DNA of 64,000 nt from a virus. Shown here one piece after another: positions 1-16,751 of this stretch (position 1 is the stretch's first letter; every line of letters starts with the position of its first letter). Where the stretch lies: positions 96,001-160,000 of the IMG/VR virus record IMGVR_UViG_3300045988_173726; one strand, given 5' to 3'. The position numbers and the translations under genes are program-made. Below the pieces are notes generated by a model, which did no database searches, was not told the origin of the DNA, and was given only the letters and a program-made list of their open reading frames with translations.

Positions 1-2
1 AA

Positions 3-950
3 CAAAGGAATCTAAGGTTAAGGGTAGTTGCGAAGAAGTCAAGGTTAAACAGGCTGAAACAGAAGCTAAAGGCACTAGAGTACCAATTAAAATCTGGAAT
101 GTTAAAGCTTTGTTTCGGTACAAAACGGCTACTTAAACAAGACCATGATAAGTTTGTTGAACAGCGAGACAGCCAAATGACTCTCATAGGAGCTAAAGAG
201 AAACCAGCGTGTAATCCAGTTTTACAGTTGACTTATAATCGAAGGAGTAATCAGTTTTTGATTCGGTTGCGGAAAGATTTCGGAGGGTATAAGTCAGCAA
301 GAGGTGAGGATAGATATGCTTATGGAAAGGTTTATTTCAATCTTCATAAGACACAGCTTGTATCAATTTTGAGGTATAAGACTAGTCCTCTATCTTATAG
401 AATAATCAAGATGAATGGCAGATATTACCTATATTGTATATTTGAGTTTCAAGTAAGTGCTGGCGATATAGTTACTCGTTCTTCTTACGGAACGATAGGG
501 CTGGACTTTAACAAAGGTTTTGTGACCTTATCAGAGACGAATCAATACGGTCATCTAGTAAAAACACAGTTTATGCCATATCGGTTTAAGTCTGGAAACA
601 AGACAAATACAGACCTACAAGCAATAGCAAATCATGTAGCTAAACTAGCATTGGTAACAGGAAAAGATGTTTGTATAGAGAATCTTGATTTTAGAGCAAA
701 GAAAGCTAAGACAGAATCAAAGATAGGAAAGAAATACAACGAGATGCTTCATTCGTTAGCCTATCGGGAGTTTAGTGACGCGATGAAAAGTGTAGCATAT
801 AGAAACAGAGTTAGATTAAATAAAGTAAATCCAGCGTGGACATCATGGTTAGCAGATAGGATTTATTGTAAGTCTATGAAGTTGAATATACATACTGGAG
901 CTTCATATGTAATAGCAAGGCGTGGACAGGGTTATAAAGACGCTGTGTAA
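3..950 (+). CDS. TnpB-like RuvC-fold protein, copy 1 (5' end lies outside the window); no zinc finger, RuvC-III Asp replaced
   Basis: The frame is open from the window edge. It aligns codon-for-codon with about residue 128 onward of the 4401..5732 ORF. Motifs: GLDFNKG (RuvC-I-like), CIENLD (RuvC-II-like), NPAWTSW (PAYTSQ-like), NIHTGASYVIARRG at the C-terminus. Confidence 0.8.
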   Translation, partial: QRNLRLRVVAKKSRLNRLKQKLKALEYQLKSGMLKLCFGTKRLLKQDHDKFVEQRDSQMTLIGAKEKPACNPVLQLTYNRRSNQFLIRLRKDFGGYKSARGEDRYAYGKVYFNLHKTQLVSILRYKTSPLSYRIIKMNGRYYLYCIFEFQVSAGDIVTRSSYGTIGLDFNKGFVTLSETNQYGHLVKTQFMPYRFKSGNKTNTDLQAIANHVAKLALVTGKDVCIENLDFRAKKAKTESKIGKKYNEMLHSLAYREFSDAMKSVAYRNRVRLNKVNPAWTSWLADRIYCKSMKLNIHTGASYVIARRGQGYKDAV

Positions 951-1176
951 GGAGCATCTAACAATCAATCCTATACAGATGTATTCAACGCAAGACAGTT
1001 GAGCATTTCCCTGTAGGATTAAGTTTACTAGAAACTCTGATAACAATTCTCATTGTGTGGCTACGGTCGAAATGGAATGAGTCTGGATGGAATAGGTTAG
1101 CCGTAAGACCTTGGGTTGGAAAACTCTAAAATTGAGCTAGAAATGTGGATTTCTTAGCTATTTTCTAGTTACGGCT
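951..1176 (+). ncRNA. Conserved structured non-coding module 3' of TnpB-like copy 1 (omega-RNA-like scaffold candidate)
   Basis: No ORF. Alignable to 5733..5965. Stems 968-973/1014-1019 (extended by 976-978/1011-1013 across a 2-nt bulge) and 1097-1106/1169-1178 stay paired in the other copy through compensatory substitutions. Homology stops at the 3' arm of the closing stem. Confidence 0.45.
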
Positions 1177-1334
1177 AACGCCTGCGGAGCGAGAAGAGGT
1201 TTTACGGGGCTTAGAAGCATAAAGCCCCGTAGACGCACGAGACGGCGTTTTACGGGCGGTTAGAGGTTTAAGCCTAAGGAATAGCCTAGGGGCAGTTAGG
1301 CGGCTTGGAGAGGCGTGTAGCGCGTCAGAGAGGG

Positions 1335-1649
1335 ATGAGGGACGATATGGGAGAGCAGAATAGAAATCCGCTTGAGGGGTTACTTGAGGTACGGCGTGAG
1401 GTAAGAAAGCTTTGTCCAGAGCTTTTTCCGAAAGAGGAGCGAGTAGCCTACGGGGTAGTAGGCGAGACAGGAGAGCCTTCGGTGGCGCTTCAAAAGTTTA
1501 ATAAGCTATTGGCGGCACAGACGGGCAGTAAGACAGGAAAGAAGCGAAAGACAGCGGTAAAAGTCCCAGCAAAGCAAGGAAAGGTCGGAGACGGCGAATT
1601 TACGGGAACGAGTTTATTTGAGGCGATGAAACGAGGGGGAGTGCTATGA
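1335..1649 (+). CDS. Hypothetical Lys-rich small protein
   Basis: ORF with in-frame ATGs at 1335 and 1347 after GAGAGGGA. The stop overlaps the next start as ATGA at 1646. The track start at 1305 is a TTG inside a hairpin-rich leader, so the start is uncertain. Confidence 0.5.
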   Translation: MRDDMGEQNRNPLEGLLEVRREVRKLCPELFPKEERVAYGVVGETGEPSVALQKFNKLLAAQTGSKTGKKRKTAVKVPAKQGKVGDGEFTGTSLFEAMKRGGVL

Positions 1650-2065
1650 GTAAGCGCGTGTATGCGAAAGCCGAGACGGTACGAGTTCTAGATAGGTGGG
1701 ACGAAGAAGCGGAAGCTTCACTACAACTGCTTGCGTCCCCGAAGGCAATCGTAAGTCGTGTGAGGACAAATCCGAGAGGGTATTTCAAGCGTGTTAAGTA
1801 TGTTGTTCGACACGAAGGGAATGAATTAACTGAGGTTATAGTGAATTGTGAGGATTTTGATGCAGAGTCACCTTTCTTTGTCGGGACAGAGGAGATGATG
1901 TTTGTGTTTTCAACGCGGGGCAGTATACCTTGTACTTCTTTTACCGTCAAAATTAGCTTTGCAACAGGTTCTATCAAGATATTCGGAACTATAGAAGCGA
2001 TAGGATACTTGACAGACTGGCTTCATGTTCCATTTACAGATTTTAAGCTTGTGAGATACAGGTAA
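1646..2065 (+). CDS. Array paralogue A1 (SRVRTNP / DWLHVP small-protein family), function unknown
   Basis: ATG after GAGGGGGA. Shares VYAKA, SRVRTNP.G, YVVR, TGSI.IFG and L.DWLHVP..DFK with neighbouring ORFs. Confidence 0.8.
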   Translation: MSKRVYAKAETVRVLDRWDEEAEASLQLLASPKAIVSRVRTNPRGYFKRVKYVVRHEGNELTEVIVNCEDFDAESPFFVGTEEMMFVFSTRGSIPCTSFTVKISFATGSIKIFGTIEAIGYLTDWLHVPFTDFKLVRYR

Positions 2066-2083
2066 GAGAATGGGGGTTTTGTT

Positions 2084-2494
2084 GTGAAAGTATATGCGAA
2101 AGCAGTGAAATTGAGAGTACCAGACAGGTGTGACGGGGATATACATGTCACGCTTCAAATGGTTAAGCCTCTAAATGCGGTTTTAAGTAGAATAATGACA
2201 ACGCCGAACGGACGGTTAGTTCGTTCAGAGTATGTTGTTCGGAACGAGCAGGGAGTAACAACTCTTAGAGCAAATTTTGGTGAGTTTTGCGCAGAATCAC
2301 CTGTACCTGACGGCACAGAGCGGATAAGGCTTAGATTTTTAGTACGAGGTGGAGCAATACACACCTCAATTCGTGTCAATATCAATCTTTTGACTGGCTC
2401 TATAGATATATTTGGAAAGTATGGGACAGTCGCAGACTTGACTGACTGGCTTCATGTGTCGCCTAGCGATTTTAAGATTGTGAGAGCCAAGTAA
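2084..2494 (+). CDS. Array paralogue A2, function unknown
   Basis: GTG start after GGGGG. Motifs VYAKA, LSRIMTTPNG, YVVRNE, TGSIDIFG, LTDWLHVSPSDFK. Confidence 0.8.
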   Translation: MKVYAKAVKLRVPDRCDGDIHVTLQMVKPLNAVLSRIMTTPNGRLVRSEYVVRNEQGVTTLRANFGEFCAESPVPDGTERIRLRFLVRGGAIHTSIRVNINLLTGSIDIFGKYGTVADLTDWLHVSPSDFKIVRAK

Positions 2495-2516
2495 GAAAAG
2501 TTAGCGGGGGAGGTTT

Positions 2517-2933
2517 ATGAGTGGTCGAGTTTACGCGAGAGCAGGGAAGATGCGGGTCAGTCCGTTTCGAGATAGCGACAATGATACTGTACGGGCTACA
2601 CTTCAACGGGTAATATATCCGAGGTCATTTCTAAGTCGGTTAAGAACAAATCCGAAGGCGGAGTTTGTTAGCGCTGAATGCGTCATTCGTAATAGAGCAG
2701 AGAGTATACCGCTACGGTTTGAGGATTTGGTAGCTTTTCATTTCCCCATAGGAACGGTAGGTGTGACTTTAAGGTTTAAGCCGCGCTATAGTTTCGGAGA
2801 CAGTCTACTCTCTATTAAGACTAACCTTATCACAGACGATATAGAGGATATAGAGATAGTCGGGAAAAGAGAAGCGGTTGTAGACTTGTTAGAGTGGTTA
2901 CATGTGCCGCTGTCAGAGTTTCGATTGAAGTAG
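2517..2933 (+). CDS. Array paralogue A3, function unknown
   Basis: ATG after GGGGGAGG. Motifs VYARA, SRLRTNPKA, FPIGTVGVTLRF, IEIVGKREAVVDLLEWLHVPLSEF. Confidence 0.8.
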   Translation: MSGRVYARAGKMRVSPFRDSDNDTVRATLQRVIYPRSFLSRLRTNPKAEFVSAECVIRNRAESIPLRFEDLVAFHFPIGTVGVTLRFKPRYSFGDSLLSIKTNLITDDIEDIEIVGKREAVVDLLEWLHVPLSEFRLK

Positions 2934-2946
2934 TTTGGGGTGGTCT

Positions 2947-3402
2947 ATGAGTAAGAAGAGTAAGAAACAGTACGCGAGAGCTGAAGTAATAAGTCCATTT
3001 CTGGGGAGCGGTGGCGATGTGATAAAAGCTTGTCTTAGTATAGTTGTTTCTCCTATGGCATTTGTACGTCGGGTAATAGCGAATAAAATTGGTAAGCTAG
3101 CGGGTGTTGAGTACATTGCTTCTCGTGAAGCTGGCTATCTTCCGATACTGGCAGAAGATTTCCTAGCCAATGCGGATTTACCTAGTAACACGAAATGTGT
3201 AAGGCTTAAGTTCATGTTGCATAGTAGTTTATCCAGCAGTCTATCGGGTGGTATATTCTTAGTATTTGTTAGCTTCCGAGTTGGTCGTGTAGAAATACTC
3301 GGAAAGATGAATACAGTAGTAGCCCTAGTCGATTGGCTTAATGTTCCGTTTTCGGAATTTGAATTTATCCTTCCGAGTTCAGATTCATTGTGTTTAGGTT
3401 AG
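2947..3402 (+). CDS. Array paralogue A4, function unknown
   Basis: In-frame ATG at 2947 (the track start at 2935 is TTG). Motifs QYARAEV, VRRVIANK, VEILGKMNTVVALVDWLNVPFSEF. Confidence 0.75.
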   Translation: MSKKSKKQYARAEVISPFLGSGGDVIKACLSIVVSPMAFVRRVIANKIGKLAGVEYIASREAGYLPILAEDFLANADLPSNTKCVRLKFMLHSSLSSSLSGGIFLVFVSFRVGRVEILGKMNTVVALVDWLNVPFSEFEFILPSSDSLCLG

Positions 3403-3415
3403 GGGGTTTGTGGAT

Positions 3416-3838
3416 ATGAGTGGCAGGAAGTATTTGGATGTGGGCCATTTGAAGATAAGTAGTTCTGGTGGTATGCGAGGTCTATTGCATGTAACTTGCA
3501 AGACTAGCGCTTCTCTAAAGGCACTTGCGAGTAGAGTTTGCACGAATCCGCATAGTAGATTAACGGAAGCCTATTATTTAGTGGCGGGAAGTAGTGGGCG
3601 GCTTAATATCGAGGAGCTAAGTGTGTTGGACTTAAAAGCCTTTCGTTTACCCGAGGTGGCTGTTGGGCTTAGACTTGATTTTTCATCAAAAGGTAAGCTA
3701 GAAAGCAGGATAGGCGGCGAGGAGTTTTCAGTTTGGATTAACTCTGTGGAGAGTAAGCTGGAGATAATTGGCAAGAGAAACGCCGTTATAGAGTTGTGCG
3801 CGTGGCTTAATGCGCCGCTTTCAGATTTAATTAAGTAA
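3416..3838 (+). CDS. Array paralogue A5, function unknown
   Basis: ATG at 3416 lies 9 nt after AGGGGG (track start GTG at 3410). Motifs ASRVCTNPHS, LEIIGKRNAVIELCAWLNAPLSD. Confidence 0.75.
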   Translation: MSGRKYLDVGHLKISSSGGMRGLLHVTCKTSASLKALASRVCTNPHSRLTEAYYLVAGSSGRLNIEELSVLDLKAFRLPEVAVGLRLDFSSKGKLESRIGGEEFSVWINSVESKLEIIGKRNAVIELCAWLNAPLSDLIK

Positions 3839-3861
3839 TTCTGTGTTTAGGAGGTGAGATT

Positions 3862-4257
3862 GTGGGCGAGAGACGGTATCTGGACGATAGTTCCGTAAAG
3901 ATAGCGTGGGTTGGAGATAAATTAGACGCAAAGTTTAGAGTTGTCTCGTCATTAAAGGCGGTTGCGAGCCGTGTTAGGACAAACCCAAAAGGTAAGTTAG
4001 TGGAGGCTTCATGCGTAGTAGCTAGTGGCGGCAGTGTAAGATATGTTATGCTAAGGGTAGCGGATTTAGTTGCCTTCCGTTTACCTGTTGGGACTACTAG
4101 CGTTTTGCTTATTTTTGAGTCGAAAGGTAGTAGGCGCGGGGAAACATTTTCCATTATAATTGACTTAGCGGGGAAGTCGTTAGAGATAATTGGTAACAGA
4201 AACGAAGTAGTAGATTTGTGTTCGTGGCTTCATGAGCCGATTTGGGGGAATATATGA
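3862..4257 (+). CDS. Array paralogue A6, function unknown
   Basis: GTG 7 nt after AGGAGG. Motifs ASRVRTNPKG, FRLPVGTTSV, LEIIGNRNEVVDLCSWLHEP. Confidence 0.8.
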   Translation: MGERRYLDDSSVKIAWVGDKLDAKFRVVSSLKAVASRVRTNPKGKLVEASCVVASGGSVRYVMLRVADLVAFRLPVGTTSVLLIFESKGSRRGETFSIIIDLAGKSLEIIGNRNEVVDLCSWLHEPIWGNI

Positions 4258-4310
4258 CAGAACGAAGAAGCAGTGACAAGAGTTCCGTAAAGATAGCGCG
4301 GATAAATTAG
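4254..4310 (+). pseudogene. 18-codon remnant of a further array paralogue (MTERRSSDKSSVKIARIN*)
   Basis: ATGA-coupled to the A6 stop. The N-terminus matches A6 (MGERRYLDDSSVKIAW) and the gene at 6000 (MEKRRSSGKIKVKRD). It is truncated by a TAG just upstream of the TnpB-like copy 2. Confidence 0.45.
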
Positions 4311-4400
4311 CCGTTTCCAACGATGCAGAGAAGCGGGAATTACGTCTCAATTTTCTATGTTTTAGTTAAGGTTTTCATTAGGGGCATAGGGTGAATTGTA

Positions 4401-5732
4401 ATGCAGAAGCTAAAGTTGACTATAGTAACACAGCTACACGAGGGAAGTAACCGAGGTTTAATTGAATATATGGAAGCTTCCCGTAGGGATTATGGGAAAG
4501 CAATGCGAGAGACTTTCTATGCAATTAAGCGTGGTGGTTTTGATAAGTCAAAGTACAACACATGCCTTCAACATAGACATGGAATTGTTAGTCGAACTGC
4601 AAATGCTATCATTTCTGACGCTCAAGGAAGATTTTATGCTCTTAAGGCGCTGAAAGAGTGTGAGAGGAAGCAGTTAGAGCGAAAGATTAAATATCTTGAG
4701 AGTACAGTTATTCCTAAGTTAGTTGAGCAAAGGAATCAGAATTCAACTAAGCTTCAAGACGGAGTATTTGTTTCGTTGATTCAACAAAGGAATCTAAGGT
4801 TAAGGGTAGTTTCAAAGAAGTCTAAACTAAATAGGTTGAAGCAGAAGCTTGAAGTGTTGAAGTATCAACTAGAAATAGGAAAGTTAAAGCTTTGTTTTGG
4901 AACGAAAAGGTTGTTAAAGCAAGACCAAGAGAAGTTTATTGAGCAAAGGGATAGTCAGATGACTTTCATAGGAGCTAAGGGGGAGCTAGCATGTAATCAC
5001 AACTTGCAGTTGCGCTACAATCGAAGAAGTAATCAGTTTTTGGTTCGATTGCGTAAAGATTTCGGAGGGTATAAGTTAGTTAAAGGCGAAGATAGGTATG
5101 TTTACGGCAAAGTTTATTTCAATCATCACAAGGGACAGCTTGTTTCGATTCTGAGGTCTAAAACTAGTCCTTTATCTTATAGGATAGTCAAAAGGAAAGG
5201 TAGGTATTATTTACACTGTATATTTGAGTTTCAAGTAGGGAACAGCGGTATAGTTACTCGTTCTTCTTACGGAACGGTAGGATTAGACTTTAACAAAGGG
5301 TTTGTGACCTTATCAGAGACGAATCAGTACGGACATTTAGTTAAAACAGAGTTTATGCCTTATTGTTTCGAGTCTGGAAGTAAAACAAAAACAGACTTAC
5401 AGGATGTAGCTAATCATGTAGTTAAACTAGCTTTACGAACAGGTAAGGATATTTGTATAGAGAATCTTGATTTTAGAAGAACAAAAGCAAAGACAGAAAC
5501 AAAGATAGGAAAGAAATACAATGCTATGCTTCATTCTTTAGCCTATCGAGAGTTCAGTGACGCGATGGGGAGTGTATGTTATAGGAACAGTGTTGGATTG
5601 CACAAAGTAAATCCAGCGTGGACATCATGGTTTGCAGAGAGGATTTATTGTAAACCTATGAAGTTGAACATACATACTGGGGCTTCGTATGTAATAGCAA
5701 GGCGTGGGCAAGGGTATAAGGATGCTATATAA
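4401..5732 (+). CDS. TnpB-like RuvC-fold protein, copy 2 (full length, 443 aa); no zinc finger, RuvC-III Asp replaced by His
   Basis: GLDFNKG, CIENLDFRR, NPAWTSW. Only about 15 aa, with no CxxC pairs, lie between NPAWTSW and NIHTGASYVIARRG. The genuine TnpB in this window (24489..25676) serves as an internal comparator. Confidence 0.75.
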   Translation: MQKLKLTIVTQLHEGSNRGLIEYMEASRRDYGKAMRETFYAIKRGGFDKSKYNTCLQHRHGIVSRTANAIISDAQGRFYALKALKECERKQLERKIKYLESTVIPKLVEQRNQNSTKLQDGVFVSLIQQRNLRLRVVSKKSKLNRLKQKLEVLKYQLEIGKLKLCFGTKRLLKQDQEKFIEQRDSQMTFIGAKGELACNHNLQLRYNRRSNQFLVRLRKDFGGYKLVKGEDRYVYGKVYFNHHKGQLVSILRSKTSPLSYRIVKRKGRYYLHCIFEFQVGNSGIVTRSSYGTVGLDFNKGFVTLSETNQYGHLVKTEFMPYCFESGSKTKTDLQDVANHVVKLALRTGKDICIENLDFRRTKAKTETKIGKKYNAMLHSLAYREFSDAMGSVCYRNSVGLHKVNPAWTSWFAERIYCKPMKLNIHTGASYVIARRGQGYKDAI

Positions 5733-5965
5733 ATAGCATTTAACAATCAGTCCTACACAGATGTATCAACGCAAGACAGTTGAGCATTTCCCTGTAGGAC
5801 AAAGTTTAATTAGAAGCTCTGGCAATAATTCTCATTGTGTGGCTCTACGGTCGAAATGGGATGAGTTAGGGTGGAATAGGTTAACCGTAAGACCTTGAGT
5901 TGAAAAACTCTAAAATTGAGCTGGGAATATTGATTTATTAAATTTCGTATTTTCTAGTTACGGTT
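5733..5965 (+). ncRNA. Conserved structured non-coding module 3' of TnpB-like copy 2 (omega-RNA-like scaffold candidate)
   Basis: Aligns to 951..1176. Stems 5750-5755/5795-5800 (extended by 5758-5760/5792-5794 across a 2-nt bulge) and 5883-5890/5958-5965. Similarity to copy 1 ends at 5965. Confidence 0.45.
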
Positions 5966-5999
5966 CATGGCTTTATGTGCCGATTTGGAGGAGTGTGTG

Positions 6000-6671
6000 A
6001 TGGAAAAAAGAAGAAGCAGTGGAAAGATTAAAGTTAAAAGGGACGCTAATGGTCGTTTAGTTCAGACTTTTGACGCCCAAGTTAAAGTTAAGAGGGACGC
6101 TAATGGTGATTTAGTGCAGATTGGCGGCGATAAAGAAACCGTGCGGGTTAAGGCATCTAGTAGGCACGGTATAGGCACTAGGAATTTGGCAGGGGCAGGT
6201 TTGGGTGTTCATCATCTTGTTAAGGACGCGAGCGGTCGTTTAATTGTGTGTGATAATATTGGTAGTGTTCTTAGGGGTAATCTTGGGGGTAAAAAGATAC
6301 ATTCTATAGATATAGACGGTCGGGTTCAGTTATGGAGAGGTAACGGAGTTTGTAGTGTATCATTTGGGATACTGATGGAGCCAAGAGAGTTTTTGGAGGG
6401 ATTGGTACAGTATCCGAATTGCACGAGAGCTGAAGTAGCTCTGATGTATCCGAGTTTTAAGTCTACAAAGTTTACTGCTAATTATAGCTTAGATAAGCTG
6501 ATTAGAAATGGGCTTTCAGAGGACACTCGTGGTATGATTCTTTATTTTAGTCGCAATAGGGAAGTAAACTATAACCTTACAGCGATGGTAAGCTTTATGG
6601 ATAGGATACTGACGCTTACAGGGGATAATGATTATGTGGCGGCGTTGGTTCATTGGCTTAGTGCGAGGTGA
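6000..6671 (+). CDS. Array paralogue B1 (longer, 223 aa), function unknown
   Basis: ATG at 6000 lies 6 nt after GGAGGAG (5987-5993); the track start at 5967 falls in the leader. There is an internal 54-nt tandem repeat (KVKRDANG.LVQ twice, 6030-6119). The C-terminus, LTLTGDNDYVAALVHWLSAR, matches the family. Confidence 0.75.
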   Translation: MEKRRSSGKIKVKRDANGRLVQTFDAQVKVKRDANGDLVQIGGDKETVRVKASSRHGIGTRNLAGAGLGVHHLVKDASGRLIVCDNIGSVLRGNLGGKKIHSIDIDGRVQLWRGNGVCSVSFGILMEPREFLEGLVQYPNCTRAEVALMYPSFKSTKFTANYSLDKLIRNGLSEDTRGMILYFSRNREVNYNLTAMVSFMDRILTLTGDNDYVAALVHWLSAR

Positions 6672-7024
6672 CTTGTGTGAATAGACCGATGGTAAAGCTC
6701 TTACATGTCGAGCAGAATCACGGCGGGGTTGATTGGAGTAGGGTGCTTCACTATAAGATTCTGATAAACACATTAACCTTCGCGAAGATTCTTGTAAAGA
6801 AGAATTTAGATGAAATAGAGTTTATACAGTGTGTGGAGTATGTAAAAGACGAGTGTAGCGGAGCTTGGAAGAGTGAGTGGAGTCGTATTAAGCCAGACGA
6901 GTTCTTAAAGCTTAAGTATCGGCGTAAAGAACGCAAGGAGTATATTATCAACTTCACGAGCTGTAATGTGGCGGTAATTCGTTGTTGGCGGCGGGAAGCG
7001 GATATTGTAGAGGTTAGTTTATAG
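6668..7024 (+). CDS. Small protein within the array (B2), weak family resemblance, function unknown
   Basis: The ORF fills the gap between B1 and B3. The GTG at 6668 overlaps the B1 stop, with an alternative ATG at 6689. No clear RBS. Confidence 0.55.
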   Translation: MTCVNRPMVKLLHVEQNHGGVDWSRVLHYKILINTLTFAKILVKKNLDEIEFIQCVEYVKDECSGAWKSEWSRIKPDEFLKLKYRRKERKEYIINFTSCNVAVIRCWRREADIVEVSL

Positions 7025-7042
7025 CGTTTATAGGGGGAGTTT

Positions 7043-7372
7043 ATGCGGAAAGCGCGAATTAAGCAAGTTGAAGTAGGGAAGTGGAAGCTAACGGAGTCGG
7101 TAGAGAGTTTTCTTCGCTTTGCGCTTAGGGAAAGCAACTTTAGTAACGCATTATTCAAGGTTACTGTAGGAGATGGGGAGCAGTGGAAACAGGTTTCGGT
7201 AGTCGAGGCAGTTAGCTTTGCGAAGCAGACGCTACGGTTTATCTGTATTGAGTATGGCGACCCGTCTACGATGCGAAGTTGTAGTATGTGTATAGACGCA
7301 GGGAGCAGGCTTTTAACGCTTTTTGGTGACGAGGAGCTTATCGGATTTGTTCTTTCCGAGTGCGGGGTGTGA
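7043..7372 (+). CDS. Array paralogue B3, function unknown
   Basis: ATG after GGGGGAG. The C-terminus, RLLTLFGDEELIGFVLSECG, resembles the family's terminal motif. Confidence 0.7.
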   Translation: MRKARIKQVEVGKWKLTESVESFLRFALRESNFSNALFKVTVGDGEQWKQVSVVEAVSFAKQTLRFICIEYGDPSTMRSCSMCIDAGSRLLTLFGDEELIGFVLSECGV

Positions 7373-7803
7373 GAGTGGCGAAAAGAAAGCGTCTTGAAGT
7401 TATTAAGCGTTATATTAGTCCAGACCTGTGTTATGCAGAGGTAACTTGTGAGCTAGGCTGTAAGCCTTCTGCAATTTGTAGCTGGGCGCTTAAGACCTCT
7501 GGGGTTGCAGAGTATGTGGAAATAATGGCAGAGCATAAATTAGGCTTGTGGGGGCGAGTAACACAGTCGGTTCTTGAGCGTGATGTTTTAATAGGGGGCA
7601 GAGAGTTCATGTTCTCTTTTGGTACGAGACCTGATGACACTTTTCTTACCCTTTTTCTTGACTGTAGGTATAGGCAAGTGCGTATTTGTGGAATACCGGA
7701 GTTGATTTTCTCGTTTATAAAGGCATTTAATGGCGCGATAGTGATAAAAAGCCTTTTATATGAGTATGCAAAGGCTGTCTTACAGCACGAAGAGGTGGAA
7801 TGA
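7360..7803 (+). CDS. Array paralogue B4, function unknown
   Basis: GTG at 7360 or in-frame GTG at 7375 after GCGGGGTG. Motif VRICGIPELIFSFIKAFNG. Confidence 0.65.
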   Translation: MRGVRVAKRKRLEVIKRYISPDLCYAEVTCELGCKPSAICSWALKTSGVAEYVEIMAEHKLGLWGRVTQSVLERDVLIGGREFMFSFGTRPDDTFLTLFLDCRYRQVRICGIPELIFSFIKAFNGAIVIKSLLYEYAKAVLQHEEVE

Positions 7804-8189
7804 TGAATGGCAGAGTTTTAATTAGCGAAGAGCCGCTAGAGGTGACGCCTATTAGTTGGGATACCCGCGCTATCTTTCGTACTGTGGCTACACCGAGGAA
7901 GATATTAGAGAGGATTCTAAGCATGCCGCAGAGCGATAGTTATAGTGCAAACTTGATTTTGGCAGACGGTTCATTGAATCCGATAAGCGAAGCGGCTCTT
8001 AGGTCTTTGAAGTTTCCGAGAGGCACAGTTGGAGTAGAGTTTTCCCATTCTTATGTGATTAGTGGTGGTTGGGTGACAATTTGGATAGCGATTAAATTTC
8101 GTGAAAAGACGCTTACTTTGCAGGGTGATGCGTGTGGTGTGAGTTCGGCAGTAACTTGGCTTTTAACAACAGAAGAGACGCGGGAGTAG
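7800..8189 (+). CDS. Array paralogue B5, function unknown
   Basis: ATGATG after GAGGTGG. TPRKILERILSMPQS resembles SRVRTNP, FPRGTVGVEF resembles the A3 motif FPIGTVGV, and TLTLQGDACGVSSAVTWLL matches the family C-terminus. Confidence 0.8.
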   Translation: MMNGRVLISEEPLEVTPISWDTRAIFRTVATPRKILERILSMPQSDSYSANLILADGSLNPISEAALRSLKFPRGTVGVEFSHSYVISGGWVTIWIAIKFREKTLTLQGDACGVSSAVTWLLTTEETRE

Positions 8190-8192
8190 CCT

Positions 8193-8627
8193 ATGTATCA
8201 AGTATATACTTACACGTTGAGCGAGCTATACAGTTTGTTTGACAATGGCAGGATTAAGTTGAAAGCGCCTAGTGATAGGACGCTCTCGAATGAGCATGTG
8301 CGGCTCTTGCTTGACGGGATATTTTGCGGTTATCCGATAGCGCCGCTTGTGATAATTAGAGGAGCTACAGAGCTAGGAGAGCCAGTTATTAAGGTTTTGC
8401 ATGGCACGTTTGTTTTGTCTGTTCTGCTCGGATACCGTAAGGGAGCAATACGGAGCAAAGGTTATTTGAGTTTTAAGAGCGTATCTGATAGGTCAAAGCA
8501 CGGAGACAGCGATGATTTTATAAAGCTTATGAACTATGATGTACCTGTTATAGCGCTTAGTGATGCGAAGAGTGGAGAAGCAGAGGCAACGCTACGGTTG
8601 ATTAGAGCAATGGGAAAGCACGAGTGA
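8193..8627 (+). CDS. Mini DUF262/ParB-like N-domain protein C1 (degenerate DGQQR position)
   Basis: LSELYSLFDNGRIKL, LLLDGIFCGYPIAPLVIIRG, VLHGTFVLSVLLGY, DVPVIALSD...LRLIRAMG. The order of motifs matches the DUF262 N-terminal core, but the QR/DGQQR residues are replaced. Confidence 0.5.
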   Translation: MYQVYTYTLSELYSLFDNGRIKLKAPSDRTLSNEHVRLLLDGIFCGYPIAPLVIIRGATELGEPVIKVLHGTFVLSVLLGYRKGAIRSKGYLSFKSVSDRSKHGDSDDFIKLMNYDVPVIALSDAKSGEAEATLRLIRAMGKHE

Positions 8628-8635
8628 GGTAGAAT

Positions 8636-9229
8636 ATGGGAGCGGTCATTAAGAAAGAATTTTGGACGGTAGAGCAGATTTTTCGCTTTGTGGATGAGAG
8701 ATTGGATAAGAACGCCTTTTACACTTTGAGAACAGAGGAAGGTGCAAGTAAGGGCGCAGTGATAGATGATATAACTACGCTAGCGCAGAGTCTTGAGGAG
8801 TTTCCAAACGATGTGTTAAACTGTGTATTTAATAATTATCCACTTCCGAATATCGTACTTTGCCGTGCTAGGTTATTTCCTGACGAGAGATTTAGAGAGG
8901 GTATAGGCGAAGATGTTTGGGCGCTTTGTTCTGGTGAATTAATACTTGGTACACTTTATGCCTACCGTGAAGGTTTAGCTAATTGGCGTGCGGTTGAAGA
9001 GGATGCCGAGATTGATTATGATGACGCCGATGATGCTAATTTTGACTGGTGGAATGGTGAAAGTTATCAGACGCTTGTACAAAAGGCTTCCATGGGGGAT
9101 AGAGAGGCGAAGGAGAGGTTGGAAGCCTTTAATAACTGTGAGATTCCGTTTATTCGTATAATGGAGATTGATGACAAGGAATACATTTGGGAAATTGACG
9201 AAGTGCTTGAGTATTGCTCCGACTACTAA
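8636..9229 (+). CDS. Mini DUF262/ParB-like paralogue C2 (with acidic insert)
   Basis: WTVEQIFRFVDE, NNYPLPNIVLCRA, CSGELILGTLYAY, CEIPFIRIMEID. Confidence 0.5.
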   Translation: MGAVIKKEFWTVEQIFRFVDERLDKNAFYTLRTEEGASKGAVIDDITTLAQSLEEFPNDVLNCVFNNYPLPNIVLCRARLFPDERFREGIGEDVWALCSGELILGTLYAYREGLANWRAVEEDAEIDYDDADDANFDWWNGESYQTLVQKASMGDREAKERLEAFNNCEIPFIRIMEIDDKEYIWEIDEVLEYCSDY

Positions 9230-9239
9230 GAGGCAGTAT

Positions 9240-9635
9240 ATGCAGACAAGCGGGACGGTAACGGTCAAGTGGCTTTACGATAAGTATGACAAACTAGTTA
9301 CGGCGGGAGCATTAAAGCCGTTAAGGTTCGGGGCGATTGTTTACGAGAACGAAGGTCACTATAAAGACATTTTGTCGGCTATCGTGCAGGGCTTGCCTAT
9401 TCCGCAGATAGTGGTAGGGCGAGTGAGAGCGGGGGAGACAGAGCGTTATAGCATAGTTTCTGGCGTGTTTATTCTATGTAGTTTGCTTAATTTTCGTGCC
9501 GAGAGCGGTGGTATGAGCGCAGAGCGAGTATTACAGATTTTAAGCTATTCTGTAAATCTAACGATGCTTGATACGATGACACCCCAGCGTTTAACAGAGG
9601 TAAGTAAGCTTCTAGGCGAGGTTCTGATATGGTAA
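9240..9635 (+). CDS. Mini DUF262/ParB-like paralogue C3
   Basis: In-frame ATG at 9240 lies 6 nt after AAGAGG; the track start at 9168 overlaps C2. Motifs QGLPIPQIVVGRV, VSGVFILCSLLNF. Confidence 0.5.
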   Translation: MQTSGTVTVKWLYDKYDKLVTAGALKPLRFGAIVYENEGHYKDILSAIVQGLPIPQIVVGRVRAGETERYSIVSGVFILCSLLNFRAESGGMSAERVLQILSYSVNLTMLDTMTPQRLTEVSKLLGEVLIW

Positions 9636-9997
9636 ACTACGAAGTAATGGGGATGTCGGTTAGGGACTTGTATCGAAGGTTAAAAAACGGGCAGATTATT
9701 TTAGAGTCAAAATACTTTGTGAAAGCTACGACAAGTAGCGAGGAGTTATTGCTTCGTGGAGTGCTTTCTGGCGTCCCGTTTCCTGCTATCGTGCTAATGC
9801 GAGAGAGCAAGGGCTATAGCGTAATTCTCGGCAGGGAGCTGTTGAGTGTGCTTATATCATTGCTTGATAGTAACGTTTATGAGGAGCTTGACGATATTGA
9901 CAAGTTTATGCTTATGCGTCACTGCTTTTATGTAAATATTGTGGAAGGTCGTGACAGCATAGATATTGTTGTAGAGGTTTTCGAGAGCTTTCGTTAG
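9629..9997 (+). CDS. Mini DUF262/ParB-like paralogue C4
   Basis: VRDLYRRLKNGQIIL, SGVPFPAIVLMRE, ILGRELLSVLISL. Confidence 0.5.
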   Translation: MVNYEVMGMSVRDLYRRLKNGQIILESKYFVKATTSSEELLLRGVLSGVPFPAIVLMRESKGYSVILGRELLSVLISLLDSNVYEELDDIDKFMLMRHCFYVNIVEGRDSIDIVVEVFESFR

Positions 9998-10010
9998 GAG
10001 GACTTGTTGC

Positions 10011-10379
10011 ATGAAGCACTTTAACTGTTACAACATCGACTTAACTATTTTTGATATACATGATAAGTGTTCCAGTGGAGATTTGTTGTACAAGTGTGGC
10101 AGTGATATTAAAGAGAGTGACATTGAGCTGTTAAATACCTGCCTTGAGTCTGGCTATCCGCTTCCAACACTGGTAGTTTACATAGGGAAAGACGCGCCAG
10201 CAAGGGTTCTGGTGGGTAATAGACTTGTTGCAACGATTAGCGCGTTTGTGACTATGGGAAAGTACAAAAGTTCAGTGCGAGAGAGGTTGTTTAAGAGCAT
10301 TCATTGTATCATAATAGATTCAGCTAGTCTCAGTGACGCGAATAACATTCGGCGTTTATTTAAGAGGTTTTCAGCATGA
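10011..10379 (+). CDS. Mini DUF262/ParB-like paralogue C5
   Basis: ATG after AGGAGG. Motifs ESGYPLPTLVVYIG, LVGNRLVATISAF. Confidence 0.5.
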   Translation: MKHFNCYNIDLTIFDIHDKCSSGDLLYKCGSDIKESDIELLNTCLESGYPLPTLVVYIGKDAPARVLVGNRLVATISAFVTMGKYKSSVRERLFKSIHCIIIDSASLSDANNIRRLFKRFSA

Positions 10380-10771
10380 GCAAGAAGTATAGGGAGATTA
10401 AGATTAAACCAGAGGAGTTAGGGCACTTGGCAGATAATTTCAAGTTATCTGTCGTGAATATTGGCAATCGGGTAGCTACTAAGCTAGACATTAGCAGAGT
10501 GAAGTCGCTTGCGGCGCATGGATTTCCGTTTCCTACGCTTGTTTTAGCAGAGTATTTAGTGGACGGGAATAGAAAGTATCGTGTTGTTTATGGCGCTGGG
10601 CTTGTATCGGCTATTTTGTCCTACATAGCTAACGCTTCGGAGAAGGAAAAGGATACGCAAGCGTTTAAGGAGTTTATGCGGTACGAGTTTACGGCTTTTG
10701 TGGTGGGCAGTGATAACAAGGAGAACGATTACTTGTTTGATGCATTTAAGGGAATAAACAGAAAGGGTTAA
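10376..10771 (+). CDS. Mini DUF262/ParB-like paralogue C6
   Basis: ATGA coupling. Motifs AHGFPFPTLVLAEY, VYGAGLVSAILSY. Confidence 0.5.
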   Translation: MSKKYREIKIKPEELGHLADNFKLSVVNIGNRVATKLDISRVKSLAAHGFPFPTLVLAEYLVDGNRKYRVVYGAGLVSAILSYIANASEKEKDTQAFKEFMRYEFTAFVVGSDNKENDYLFDAFKGINRKG

Positions 10772-13273: not shown

Positions 13274-14197
13274 ATGGCAGATATGCAGGATATACTTAAC
13301 TCTTCGGATATGGCTGACGGAAACGACTTACGGAGTAAGACAGATAAGGCGGTAGGTCGCTTAATCAGTCGTTTTTCTGGGGCAGATGAGAGTAGGAAGA
13401 TAGTAAAGCGGGTGTTAAACAATGTCATCGTGTTTATGGGAGCAAGCGGTGGCGCGGGAGCAAGCACGCTGGTCGCGACAGAAGCGGTTGCGATGAAGGA
13501 GAAGGGTCTTACGGTAGCGGTAGTTGACCTTGGAATCATGTTTCCGAGTCAGCATATCTATTTTGACTTAGACCAGTCTATCGGAAAAGCAGATTTAGTT
13601 TCGTATCTTTCGGGTAATAACGGGTTAAATGTGTCGCTTGAGTATAGCGATGTGCTGTTTAACAACGAGGCTACGGGGGTGGCAACGCTAACTGCTTGTA
13701 ACAGGACGCTTCGGGACTATGTGGTTATTGACAGTTCAAATGACGCGGTGCAAGCTTTAACGGAGGCATTAAACAGGCTTTCGAGTTTATTTGATGTAGT
13801 TCTAATCGACTGTAAGCTTGATTTAAGCTCTATGCTTGTGCAGACGACTCTGTTTAGGGCAGATAACATCTACTTGGTTATGGACGATGGGGTGCAGTCG
13901 CTCATAAATGTCAGTAAGCTCCGCGCAAACCTAGACGATTCGGGTATAAACACGAATAAGGTGCGTTATATCATGAACAAGCGTAAGAGTTTCTATTACG
14001 CAGAAAACAACTTAAAAGCGCTCGGTATAGAGTTAATCGGTATTTTGCCGTTTGAGATGGGTGTAGTCGAGTGCGGTTTAAGGGGACAGCTATTTACGGT
14101 ATCGGGAAAGAATACTAGCAAGACTTCCCCGAAGTATTTAGAGGCGGTAGACAGTCTAACGGCATCAATCCTTGAGATAGGAGGATATACAGAGTGA
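13274..14197 (+). CDS. TadZ/CpaE-like ParA/MinD-fold protein with a P-loop lacking the Lys
   Basis: VIVFMGASGGAGASTLVA...LTVAVVDLG. The later D-rich strand FDVVLIDC fits the MinD/ParA fold. Lies immediately upstream of the TadA-type ATPase. Confidence 0.65.
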   Translation: MADMQDILNSSDMADGNDLRSKTDKAVGRLISRFSGADESRKIVKRVLNNVIVFMGASGGAGASTLVATEAVAMKEKGLTVAVVDLGIMFPSQHIYFDLDQSIGKADLVSYLSGNNGLNVSLEYSDVLFNNEATGVATLTACNRTLRDYVVIDSSNDAVQALTEALNRLSSLFDVVLIDCKLDLSSMLVQTTLFRADNIYLVMDDGVQSLINVSKLRANLDDSGINTNKVRYIMNKRKSFYYAENNLKALGIELIGILPFEMGVVECGLRGQLFTVSGKNTSKTSPKYLEAVDSLTASILEIGGYTE

Positions 14198-15744
14198 ATC
14201 CAGAGCAGTATTTGCATATGCAGTCAAAGCGTGGTGCAAAGCAGACCACGACAGACAAGACAGCGCGTCCGTTTGAGAGTGTATTAACGGAGTGCAGAGG
14301 GTATATCGACAAGAATGCCGATTCGCTGGAGAGTAAGTCGGGTACAGAAAAGACAAAGAAGATAGGCGAGTTGATTTTGTCGTATCTGATGCAGGCGAAG
14401 CCGTTGGTCGAGGGGTTTATAAACGCGGACGGCACTTCCGACACACAGGGGTTAACCCAGCGTTTAACGCAGGAAATCACGGATTACGGTATTTTAACGG
14501 ATGCGTTAGAGAACGATGACATTTTCGAGATACGAGATAACGGTCGAGAGATAAAGGTCGAGATAAAGGGACATGTAGAGGACTATCGCGACCCAAAGAC
14601 AGGTCATATCGTAAGGTTTGACTCGCCAGAACAGCAGAAAACGGTCATTGCGAAGTTGCTCGGCGATGTGAGACTTACGCCAAAGGACGCAGTGGTTAAT
14701 GCGAGAACGGTGCAGGGCTATCGTGTAGCGGCATTGCATAGTTCGGCGCAGTCGAAAGACCCGATAGACCCGTCAAACGACCAGTATGCTTCGTTTGTTC
14801 TCCGTAAGTTTAAGCGGAATCGAATGAATCTTGGCGACATAGTAAAGAGCGGTACGCTAAGTGACAACATGGCGCGTTTACTTGCACTTAGTATGTCGGG
14901 AAGTTTAACTTTCTTCACCGTTGGACCAACATCTTCTGGTAAGACGACAACGAACCAAGCGATTTTGCAGGCAACGCCGCCTAAGCAGAGAGTTGTGTTG
15001 CTACAGAATCCGTCCGAGATAGACCTTCGTATGCGAGATTCAACGGGTCGTATCATAAACGATGTGTTGCACTTAGAGGCAAAGGACGACATACAGAATC
15101 CGCTCCCGACTTCTCCGACTATGGAGAACTTGATGAAGCACATTTTGCGACTTTCTCCGACATTTGTGTGTTTCGGTGAGCTTCGAGATAATGTAGAGTT
15201 TCAGCGTGGCATCAGTATCGGTTTAGCGGGTCATCCGTTTAACTGCACCTATCACGCCGAGGATTCGGCGGGTGCAATCGACCGATTCTTAAAGGCGTAT
15301 ATAGCGGCTTCTGGAGAGGGTATAGACACTTCGATGAGTACACTAACGAGGCTTTTGAATTTGATTATTGTGCAGAAGATACTGCCAGACGGCACGCGAA
15401 AGATTTTACAGATTTCGGAGGTAATCGGCACAGACCCGAACGATTCAAGCAAGCCGATAATCAACGATATTTACAGGTATGTGATTGACGAAGAGCCAGA
15501 CCTTGACGATGAGGGAAATGTTCTTCGGATTAACGGTAAGCATAAGCGGGTCGGTTGTTTATCGGAGAAGATAGTGCATAAGTTAAAAATCGAGGGTGTT
15601 GCGACAACGCGGTTTGATTTTCTGTTAAAGCCGCCGACAGCGGACGAGGTAGAGACTTATGAGGGCAACTACGAGACGATTATCCATTACGGCTTGGATA
15701 AGCTAAGAGAGCAGAAGCGCATGAATGCGTTAAAGAAGGACTAA
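14194..15744 (+). CDS. tadA: TadA/CpaF-type secretion ATPase (VirB11/PilT superfamily)
   Basis: Walker A GPTSSGKTTT, Asp-box-like LLQNPSEID, Walker B-like VCFGELRD, His-box GHPFNCTYHA. GTG start after AGGAGG. Confidence 0.85.
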   Translation: MNPEQYLHMQSKRGAKQTTTDKTARPFESVLTECRGYIDKNADSLESKSGTEKTKKIGELILSYLMQAKPLVEGFINADGTSDTQGLTQRLTQEITDYGILTDALENDDIFEIRDNGREIKVEIKGHVEDYRDPKTGHIVRFDSPEQQKTVIAKLLGDVRLTPKDAVVNARTVQGYRVAALHSSAQSKDPIDPSNDQYASFVLRKFKRNRMNLGDIVKSGTLSDNMARLLALSMSGSLTFFTVGPTSSGKTTTNQAILQATPPKQRVVLLQNPSEIDLRMRDSTGRIINDVLHLEAKDDIQNPLPTSPTMENLMKHILRLSPTFVCFGELRDNVEFQRGISIGLAGHPFNCTYHAEDSAGAIDRFLKAYIAASGEGIDTSMSTLTRLLNLIIVQKILPDGTRKILQISEVIGTDPNDSSKPIINDIYRYVIDEEPDLDDEGNVLRINGKHKRVGCLSEKIVHKLKIEGVATTRFDFLLKPPTADEVETYEGNYETIIHYGLDKLREQKRMNALKKD

Positions 15745-15756
15745 GGGGGTGATGGA

Positions 15757-16749
15757 ATGAAGATAAGCCCGTCACTTTATACGGTAGCGGGGGCTTCAAA
15801 GGTGGCGACACTGGTGATAATCCTCCTAGCGCTGTATGTGTTTATCGTTTGGTTTGGGATACATCCGCTAGATGTATTGCTTATCGGCTTAGACAAGTTC
15901 ACAAGGCTTGTAGGTCGGAGGGTAAATAGGCTTGACGAGCGGTATAAGCGAAATGTCGAGGTAGGTAAGCTTCGTGACGGAAGTAACTCGGTTAGGCTTT
16001 ATAAGTTTATGAACGACTTAACGATAGACTTAGGGTATAAGCGAAAGGGTGTAACGCCATACGAGTTGATGCTGTTTATTCTAGTCATATCGGTAGTGGT
16101 ATCGCTTTTAATCGGGGAGCTGATATTTAGAAGCCTGTTGCTTTCATTTCTAGCGTTTATCCCAGTGCTTTTGTCGGTGTGTTGCATCCTTTATACGAAG
16201 GCAAATATCTCGCATGATAGCCGAATCGAGGCAGTTATTTTAGCGGAGAACATAATCTCTGCAAATATCGACCGAGGCGTGGTCGTTGCGATAAGGACAA
16301 ACATTGAGTCGATGCCGATAAGCATTAAGTCCGAGTTTACGAAGTTTTTAGACAGGGTAGAGACGCAGAACTACTACATCGAGACAGCACTATTAGAGCT
16401 AGGTGCGTCCCTTGGTTCTATATCGGACGATTTTATCAGTAAGTGCATCACTTTCGAGCTTGAGGAAGAGGCTGGTTTAGCTGGTATCTTCAAAGATGTG
16501 GTAGAGGTGAATAACATAAAGACCGAGCTTAGAATCGACATGAAGCACAAGTTTGAGGCAGTGACATTTGACTTCATAATCAGTGCTACGATGGTGTTTG
16601 TGTTTTTAATCGGTGCGATAGCGATATATCCGATTTTGCAGAGATTTTATTTCCGAATGATAGTAGGACAGCTTCTTCTCCTAGTGGATTTCATGCTTGT
16701 GGTGTTTGAGTTTGTCTACATCACTTATCTTAGAGCAAAAGAGGTGTAA
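15757..16749 (+). CDS. TadB-like (T2SSF-type) inner-membrane platform protein
   Basis: N-terminal TM, two central TMs, a cytoplasmic helical segment and C-terminal TMs. Lies directly after the ATPase. Confidence 0.55.
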   Translation: MKISPSLYTVAGASKVATLVIILLALYVFIVWFGIHPLDVLLIGLDKFTRLVGRRVNRLDERYKRNVEVGKLRDGSNSVRLYKFMNDLTIDLGYKRKGVTPYELMLFILVISVVVSLLIGELIFRSLLLSFLAFIPVLLSVCCILYTKANISHDSRIEAVILAENIISANIDRGVVVAIRTNIESMPISIKSEFTKFLDRVETQNYYIETALLELGASLGSISDDFISKCITFELEEEAGLAGIFKDVVEVNNIKTELRIDMKHKFEAVTFDFIISATMVFVFLIGAIAIYPILQRFYFRMIVGQLLLLVDFMLVVFEFVYITYLRAKEV

Positions 16750-16751
16750 GT

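Follow-up and report, generated by a model that had tools for sequence, protein, structure and literature searches.

The question raised by this locus is what a tandem array of small, strongly diverged genes does in the genome of a large phage. The array lies at positions 1646-8189 of a 64,000-nucleotide stretch of viral DNA (positions 96,001 to 160,000 of IMG/VR virus record IMGVR_UViG_3300045988_173726), which is referred to below as the window and is treated here as a segment of the genome of an uncultivated human oral jumbo phage of about 265 kb and of Caudoviricetes type. A first-pass annotation, made from the sequence alone, had described the region as a tandem set of about 11 paralogues interleaved with TnpB-like repeats. 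The reading that we favour, and to which we assign a probability of roughly 45%, is that the array belongs to a hypervariable accessory island encoding non-enzymatic binding proteins, which would serve in conflict with the host or with competitors. The protein family itself appears to be new and without recognisable relatives.

Membership, distribution and predicted fold of the family

The open reading frames (ORFs) of the array are listed below with the evidence that bears on their membership, which comes from BLASTP, profile-profile comparison (hhalign) and a hidden Markov model (HMM) of the family. Ratios of non-synonymous to synonymous substitution (dN/dS) were computed with our own Nei-Gojobori script from pairwise comparisons of orthologues.

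1646-2065 (+), A1: 139 amino acids (aa); BLASTP and HMM; orthologue in only one of the relatives examined (L015)
2084-2494 (+), A2: 136 aa, GTG start; BLASTP and HMM; orthologues 71-99% identical; dN/dS 0.28-0.37
2517-2933 (+), A3: 138 aa; BLASTP and HMM; dN/dS 0.39-0.49
2947-3402 (+), A4: 151 aa from the ATG at 2947; BLASTP and HMM; variable cassette whose position shifts in some relatives
3416-3838 (+), A5: 140 aa; BLASTP and HMM; present in only some relatives
3862-4257 (+), A6: 131 aa, GTG start; BLASTP and HMM; most widespread orthogroup; dN/dS 0.17-0.24
6000-6671 (+), B1: repeat-containing N-terminal part and C-terminal family domain (about 6288-6668); A-only profile and HMM
6668-7024 (+), B2: small island ORF, not a demonstrable member; relatives 71-86% identical; dN/dS 0.26-0.33
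7043-7372 (+), B3: possible, very divergent member; collinear in hhalign, E 0.05; xLxLxG-helix element at the C-terminus
7360-7803 (+), B4: possible, very divergent member; hhalign E 0.06-0.13 over 110-122 columns
7800-8189 (+), B5: 129 aa; BLASTP to A3 (E 6e-8), hhalign (97%, E 1.6e-10) and HMM

The proteins A1-A6 are mutually homologous (BLASTP E 1e-6 to 1e-34, 25-45% identity), and the motifs in which the first-pass annotation had seen a common layout are present in all six: an N-terminal xYA(K/R)A, SR(V/L)RTNPxG, (F/L)PxGTxxV and xIxIxG-helix-WLxVPxS(D/E)F. A profile built solely from A-type proteins recognises B5 at the scores listed, together with the C-terminal ~130 residues of B1 (hhalign 88%, E 3e-6). 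When the family HMM was run against the 606 six-frame ORFs of the window, precisely eight scored (E 1e-38 to 1e-49), and the next ORF followed at E 2.1. Similarity of B2 to the family was absent by BLASTP, HMM and hhalign. B3 and B4 can be aligned collinearly with the family along their whole length, but their hhalign scores fall short of significance (E 0.05-0.13, with a probability of about 1%), and richer profiles of 14-15 orthologues each, including three allelic types of B4, gave no significant link for B2, B3 or B4. An AlphaFold2 model of B4, made from three sequences, is of low confidence (predicted local distance difference test, pLDDT, 58); its confident ends, beta-beta-alpha at both the N-terminus and the C-terminus, agree with the family layout, but its middle does not. 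Because B2 lacks similarity and B3 and B4 show only collinearity with insignificant scores, the earlier count of about 11 paralogues has to be lowered: by these comparisons the supported members number eight (A1-A6, B5 and the C-terminal domain of B1), possibly ten, and not 11.

The genes are as tightly coupled as had first been described, with intergenic spacings of -13 to +23 nt, and a GGGGG/GGAGG Shine-Dalgarno-like motif lies upstream of most of them. B1 most likely starts at 6000, behind the Shine-Dalgarno sequence GGAGGAG, and not at 5967, and the real start of B4 is probably the GTG at 7375. The N-terminal part of B1 contains a 54-nt tandem duplication (6028-6120) encoding KVKRDANG(R/D)LVQ, which together with KDASGRLIV and DIDGRVQL is faintly reminiscent of YD/RHS-type repeats, with no support from Pfam. 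The three allelic types of B4 are 42-52% identical across types and 92-99% identical within a type.

No sequence relative of the family was found in Pfam, PHROG, NCBIfam or PADLOC, against which all island ORFs were scanned, or in the PDB by profile search. A word-indexed search, which covered 5.8 billion proteins, gave 177 matches; among the 120 of these that were listed, all are 68-100% identical to A1, A2, A4, A5 or A6, on contigs of up to 275 kb, and 97 are of the A6 type (68-93% identity). When the representatives of 1.84 billion clusters at 50% identity were searched exhaustively with an HMM, only 31 clusters emerged, about half of them fragments and all at least 40% identical to members from the window. 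Since only close sequences emerge from these protein searches, the family is, as judged from the databases covered, restricted to this one phage lineage. One homologue in NR (P0065) carries the name DUF938; no match to the DUF938 model of Pfam was found at E up to 1 for any of the 11 ORFs, and the label is apparently a spurious automated annotation.

Conservation within the family points to a shared scaffold. Among 99 members, conservation reaches 70% or more at R4, R38, P43, P78, T81, L86, F88, G114, V119, L122, W125 and L126. Aside from the two arginines, the residues at these positions are for the most part proline, glycine or hydrophobic, and such positions are likely to be structural. No conserved set of Asp, Glu, His, Cys, Ser or Lys was found among the same 99 sequences. 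Most members are basic, with a median isoelectric point (pI) of 9.0.

AlphaFold2 gave a confident model of A1 from an 18-sequence alignment (pLDDT 88.9, predicted template modelling score 0.83; pLDDT 87 to 89 over the five models). The predicted fold is alpha/beta, with strands (b) and helices (a) in the order b-b-a-b-b-a-b-b-b-a-b, and can be read as b-a-b4-a with insertions. Foldseek searches with this model against the PDB and BFVD returned no match at E <1e-3, and the comparison thus gives no significant match to a known family. The top-probability matches in both libraries are the N-terminal domains of RnlA/LsoA, which we take to be TBP-like: 6y2p in the PDB (probability 0.97, E 0.083, query template modelling score, TMq, 0.42) and A0A8S5RRJ1 in BFVD (probability 0.95, E 0.082, TMq 0.39). 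TBP itself carries the beta-alpha-beta4-alpha unit as an internal duplication, and no such duplication was detected by hhalign of the two halves of the protein. The faint resemblance to a TBP-like half-domain noticed in the first-pass annotation is weakly echoed by these matches of highest probability, but they are non-significant (E about 0.08, TM about 0.4) and the internal duplication is not seen. A CYTH/triphosphate tunnel metalloenzyme fold was considered and rejected. CYTH proteins are marked by a closed tunnel of eight strands, by an ExExK motif at the N-terminus and by a lining of conserved Arg, Lys and Glu; here the several matches to them, all of low rank, have a root-mean-square deviation (rmsd) of about 10 Å at TM <=0.38, and neither an ExExK motif nor conserved acidic residues are present. 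Foldseek matches to CYTH, LolA, PhdC and immunoglobulin folds were dismissed for an rmsd >10 Å or TM <0.3.

Their basic character and their weak resemblance to TBP-like domains mean that a role in nucleic-acid binding has to be considered, in which the proteins would be factors of phage DNA or RNA transactions (nucleoid or genome organisers, transcription modulators) that use a TBP-like curved beta-sheet and are not conflict effectors at all. We regard this as unlikely. Most members have a pI of 9-10, Arg38 is conserved on helix 1, and the island is set between a UvrD helicase gene and genes for replication and segregation; the fold of the RnlA/LsoA domains is one that often binds nucleic acid. 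The Foldseek matches on which the structural part of this argument draws are, however, non-significant (E about 0.08, TM 0.39-0.43), the internal repeat is undetectable, and a housekeeping factor would not be expected to occur in 3-10 copies, to suffer block deletions or to evolve at about ten times the rate of its replication neighbours.

The N-terminal motif, which is kept across otherwise diverged paralogues, raises a different idea, namely that MSxRxYAxA is a packaging or processing signal and that the proteins travel inside the capsid and enter the cell together with the phage DNA, as do the variable internal proteins of phages of the T4 type. A hypervariable locus of basic proteins in a large phage would suit such a role. 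In the AlphaFold2 fold, however, the motif forms strand 1 (residues 7-14, pLDDT about 80) and not a detachable peptide, and the island lies amid replication and segregation genes, not head genes. We consider this explanation very improbable.

Variation and selection across related genomes

About 15 related islands were gathered with the conserved DHH gene as anchor, and family members were counted between this gene and X100, the ORF at the head of the array; some of these loci may be one genome drawn from two collections. The islands hold 3, 4, 5, 6, 6, 6, 7, 7, 7, 8, 8, 9, 9, 10 and 10 members. Clustering at 60% identity gives 15 orthogroups whose order is conserved. Almost all islands contain A2, A3, A6 and B5; A1, A4, A5, B1 and seven other types are present or absent in the manner of cassettes, and whole gene blocks are absent from some genomes. 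In the favoured reading the repertoire changes by cassette turnover, whole genes being gained and lost between the anchors A2, A3, A6 and B5.

The island also differs from its surroundings in rate. Between the window and its best counterparts, protein identity is 26-99% in the island and 95-100% for the downstream DHH, ParA-like, T2SSE ATPase and actin-like proteins. Synonymous divergence (dS) is similar in both, at 0.2-0.47 in the core and about 0.2-0.6 in most genes of the island (B4 has lower values), but non-synonymous divergence (dN) in the island exceeds that of the core about tenfold. Pairwise dN/dS is accordingly 0.17-0.49 for the family and 0.08-0.58 for all island genes, compared with 0.01-0.08 for the core. 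Together with the 3-10 copies per island and the ~15 orthogroups, these values bear out the rapid diversification proposed in the first-pass annotation.

Ratios of this size, with pooled ratios of non-synonymous to synonymous differences (pN/pS) of 0.28-0.51 per orthogroup, indicate that the family genes are under purifying selection, which is indirect evidence that they are translated. The genes would thus seem to be translated and to evolve fast, with each of them dispensable on its own. The elevated dN/dS could also be taken to mean that the array is evolutionary debris, a set of old duplicates that drift under relaxed constraint and have no function at present; members are individually dispensable, they are interrupted or deleted by insertion elements, and two gene remnants (4254-4310 and 5968-6000) lie within the array. 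This is the least probable of the explanations weighed here. All eight members have intact reading frames with ribosome-binding-site-like motifs, dN/dS and pN/pS alike fall well short of the 1 expected under neutrality, the anchors A2, A3, A6 and B5 persist in almost every genome, and the fold-defining residues are conserved over the 99 sequences.

Three further features frame the array.

1179-1346 (+), conserved non-coding leader: about 170 nt, with its nucleotide sequence kept across 13 related genomes
1347-1649 (+), X100: basic ORF of 100 aa, always at the array head; its stop overlaps the start of A1
8193-10771 (+), C1-C6: second tandem array directly after B5; six small paralogues, unrelated to the first family

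The leader contains hairpins such as ACGGGGCTT...AAGCCCCGT, in which some base changes preserve the pairing, and may act as promoter or leader of the array. Because the genes are packed back to back behind this conserved leader and the 100-aa ORF, they are probably made from one transcript. X100 occurs in every relative (82-98% identity, dN/dS 0.19-0.45) and has no family match in the profile scans of the island ORFs. The right end of the first TnpB-like element abuts the leader at TAACGCCTGCGGAGCG, a sequence conserved also in genomes that lack the insertion.

C1-C6 belong to the same hypervariable island. They share the motif GYPFPxIVL...YRVxxGxxLL in alignment, occur in 5-8 copies in relatives at identities of 26-96%, and are clade-restricted; a Pfam scan of 26 members gave no match. 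A putative likeness to the N-terminal domain of ParB/DUF262-like proteins was dropped, as it is supported neither by that scan nor by the annotations of 113 homologues.

TnpB-like elements within the array

The array is interleaved with repeats that the first-pass annotation had called TnpB-like, and the features concerned are as follows.

1-950 (+), TnpB-like gene copy 1, 3' part: cut by the window start; 82% identical in DNA and protein to 4783-5732
968-1178 (+), IS605-orfB-I RNA copy 1: Rfam RF03065, 179 bits, E 8e-43
4254-4310 (+), 5' remnant of a B1-like gene: first 18 codons, MTERRSSDKSSVKIARIN followed by a stop; cut off by the TnpB element; direct repeats
4311-5967 (+), TnpB-like element copy 2: alignment places its left end at about 4311; ORF 4401-5732, 443 aa
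5750-5967 (+), IS605-orfB-I RNA copy 2: Rfam RF03065, 203 bits
5968-6000 (+), 3' remnant of an A6-like gene: WLYVPIWRSV followed by a stop; 33 nt, homologous to 4226-4257; immediately follows the element's right end

The repeats 1-1178 and 4783-5967 are 82% identical and, as had been noted, bracket the A-half, enclosing the 1347-1649 ORF and A1-A6. A complete 443-aa copy 1 is seen in locus L001 of the same genome. Both RNA matches lie well above the Rfam gathering score of 94 for RF03065, the IS605-orfB-I motif, which we take to be the scaffold of the TnpB guide (omega) RNA. The protein matches the NCBIfam model guided_TnpB at E 1.6e-8 (34 bits, below the curated cut-off of 100), TIGR01766 at E 2e-4 and a PHROG transposase at E 7e-6; it gave no match to the OrfB_IS605 or zinc-ribbon families of Pfam and no sequence match in the PDB. 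These results support the TnpB-like identity of the repeats, which would be divergent TnpB elements, each with a 3' omega-RNA. In alignment the elements terminate at ...TAGTTACGG (1174 in copy 1), beyond which the flanks diverge. Just upstream of the window, at about 7540-7850 of L001, a unit of left end and omega-RNA without tnpB precedes copy 1.

The second copy sits at a junction of family genes. In relatives without the insertion, B1 follows directly after A6, and in the window 4226-4310 and 5968-6027 form two copies of this A6/B1 junction, ~79% identical, that flank copy 2. From the A6- and B1-like remnants at its flanks and the uninterrupted A6-B1 order in relatives, it follows that copy 2 lies between two diverged A6/B1 junctions, and hence that its guide-side flank is a fragment of a family gene; by position, 5968-6000 is the omega-RNA guide region of copy 2. 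The doubled junction may have arisen by unequal recombination or by homing that carried the flanks along.

Insertions of this kind recur. TnpB elements are found at five or more positions of the island in relatives, one with a deletion; among the sites are those after the A2-type gene in L024, after the A3-type gene in L016, L021 and L010, and between C1 and C2 in L014. In L010 and L023 the element occupies the place of the whole stretch that separates the A3-type from the C2-type gene, and this replacement of a gene block shows that TnpB-associated deletions or rearrangements of the island do occur. Recombination between the two copies of the window, which are only 82% identical, is plausible. 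A bolder proposal would be that the family is a structurally new class of conflict effectors of human oral jumbo phages whose cassettes are actively reshuffled by RNA-guided TnpB/omega-RNA elements. We think this quite unlikely; if true, it would make an RNA-guided nuclease element the driver of diversification at a phage arms-race locus.

Reading of the island, its setting and known systems

The favoured reading, that of a hyperplastic accessory island, draws on the lineage-specific expansion, the non-catalytic scaffold, the cassette turnover, the elevated dN/dS, the tolerance of insertions and the adjoining variable C array. The proteins, of ~130-150 aa and mostly basic with an alpha/beta fold, share a scaffold in which no catalytic residues are conserved and would most likely be non-enzymatic binders. 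Every paralogue would recognise another variant of a host or competitor molecule, be it part of a defence system, a toxin or a target nucleic acid, and the set would in this way act as host take-over or counter-defence factors, a kind of role that the first-pass annotation had also suggested. The repertoire is also altered by rearrangements around the TnpB/omega-RNA elements that land repeatedly in the island.

Several observations weigh against this reading. No profile of a known defence or counter-defence family in PADLOC, PHROGs, Pfam or NCBIfam matches the proteins, and known anti-defence proteins are often acidic, whereas the family members are basic. Gene-wide dN/dS is below 1, and relaxed constraint alone could account for the fast evolution; isolated 15-codon windows at pN/pS >=1 occur only in A2 and A3, with no consistent pattern across orthogroups. 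A scan for sigma-70 promoters and terminators detected no more of them than shuffled sequence contains.

That the paralogues are small, diverged and non-enzymatic, and are present or absent like cassettes, would also fit an immunity-like or exclusion set, in which each paralogue neutralises another toxin (polymorphic, bacteriocin-type or of a toxin-antitoxin system) or blocks superinfecting relatives. The poly-immunity loci of polymorphic toxin systems have a layout comparable to that of the array. A recognisable toxin gene is absent beside it, however, Pfam and NCBIfam show no similarity to known immunity families, and the mechanism overlaps with that of the favoured reading in that the proteins would bind and neutralise in both. 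We hold this explanation to be unlikely.

The genomic setting is that of a large phage. A human-metagenome scaffold of 264.6 kb (ENA ERZ28665461) carries the exact A1 protein and ends inside TnpB-like copy 2. Close relatives are contigs of 214-272 kb from IMG/VR and from ENA, JGI and Logan assemblies, Human Microbiome Project samples among them, and the label of one family homologue reads 'MAG TPA ... Caudoviricetes sp.'. Many circular jumbo phages from the same Chinese and US oral data sets are reported in a survey preprint; literature searches turned up surveys of oral jumbo phages and no work on the family. Relatives are absent from 185,579 species genomes when A6 and the T2SSE ATPase serve as queries, and the GenBank phage and PLSDB plasmid collections gave no match by megablast or tblastn. 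That the host is Gram-positive is a guess from the choline-binding repeats of an endolysin-like protein.

The sizeable ORFs of the window all lie on the + strand, and the GC skew runs from +0.17 to +0.38 throughout the 64 kb. Long antisense ORFs within the array, for example 1600-1977 (-) and 6751-7158 (-), are most likely by-products of this strong, uniform skew and one-strand composition. The island is flanked on one side by the UvrD helicase gene and on the other by genes for DHH/RecJ-like, ParA-like and actin-like proteins, an exonuclease and a polymerase. The window encodes a DHH/RecJ-like protein, a ParA/MinD-like ATPase, a T2SSE-type ATPase and an actin-like protein, and in addition a 5'-3' exonuclease, a fragment of a family-A polymerase, a clamp-loader subunit and the endolysin-like protein with its choline-binding repeats. 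At 13274-17846 the ParA/MinD-like ATPase and the T2SSE (PilB/VirB11/TadA-type) ATPase cluster with two unannotated proteins of ~330-364 aa, and an actin-like (ALP/ParM-type) protein follows further along at 20883-22040. The proteins of this cluster are 98-100% identical between genomes and resemble a segregation- or secretion-like module, which is unusual in a phage. A canonical TnpB with Pfam HTH_OrfB_IS605, OrfB_IS605 and Cas12f1-like TNB domains is encoded at 24489-25676, in a patch with a GC content of 0.39 against about 0.47.

Oral jumbo phages are common on the tongue and almost entirely uncharacterised, and the island is the site of greatest difference between otherwise nearly identical genomes. 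It is for this reason an obvious place for determinants of host range, counter-defence or competition. Its about 15 orthogroups, with a confident fold and no clear structural neighbour, form a defined experimental set, and the repeated landing of TnpB/omega-RNA elements offers a natural system for how such elements reshape the accessory regions of phages. The findings so far hold nothing mechanistically surprising; variable tandem multigene families in large viruses and phage accessory or anti-defence islands are already well known.

Among known structures, the N-terminal domain of RnlA/LsoA (6y2p; A0A8S5RRJ1) resembles the family in its curved antiparallel sheet packed by helices (102-112 aligned columns, rmsd 4-5 Å), but identity is 6-12%, the family has no HEPN or RNase part, and there is no sequence relationship. 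The mobile elements resemble IS200/IS605-type TnpB elements in the order of a TnpB-like ORF and an IS605-orfB-I RNA and in the differing sites of their copies in relatives; unlike those, the protein here is divergent and TnpA is absent. Phage anti-defence islands (anti-CRISPR, anti-restriction) share with this locus small orphan proteins, tight operons, lineage restriction and variable content, but usually mix unrelated families, often with a helix-turn-helix regulator, whereas a single basic family has been expanded 3-10 fold here. The multigene families of large DNA viruses and the poly-immunity arrays of bacteria likewise consist of diverged paralogues that expand and contract as tandem sets in variable, conflict-linked regions, but with other hosts, other folds and no homology, and there is no adjacent toxin here. 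The hyperplastic regions of T4-type phages and their internal-protein locus are thought to serve host-range and counter-defence functions. They are unrelated in sequence and structure to the present island, which consists of true paralogues of one family in a collinear array. They are alike in being clusters of small, fast-evolving, dispensable genes whose content differs between very similar large phages.

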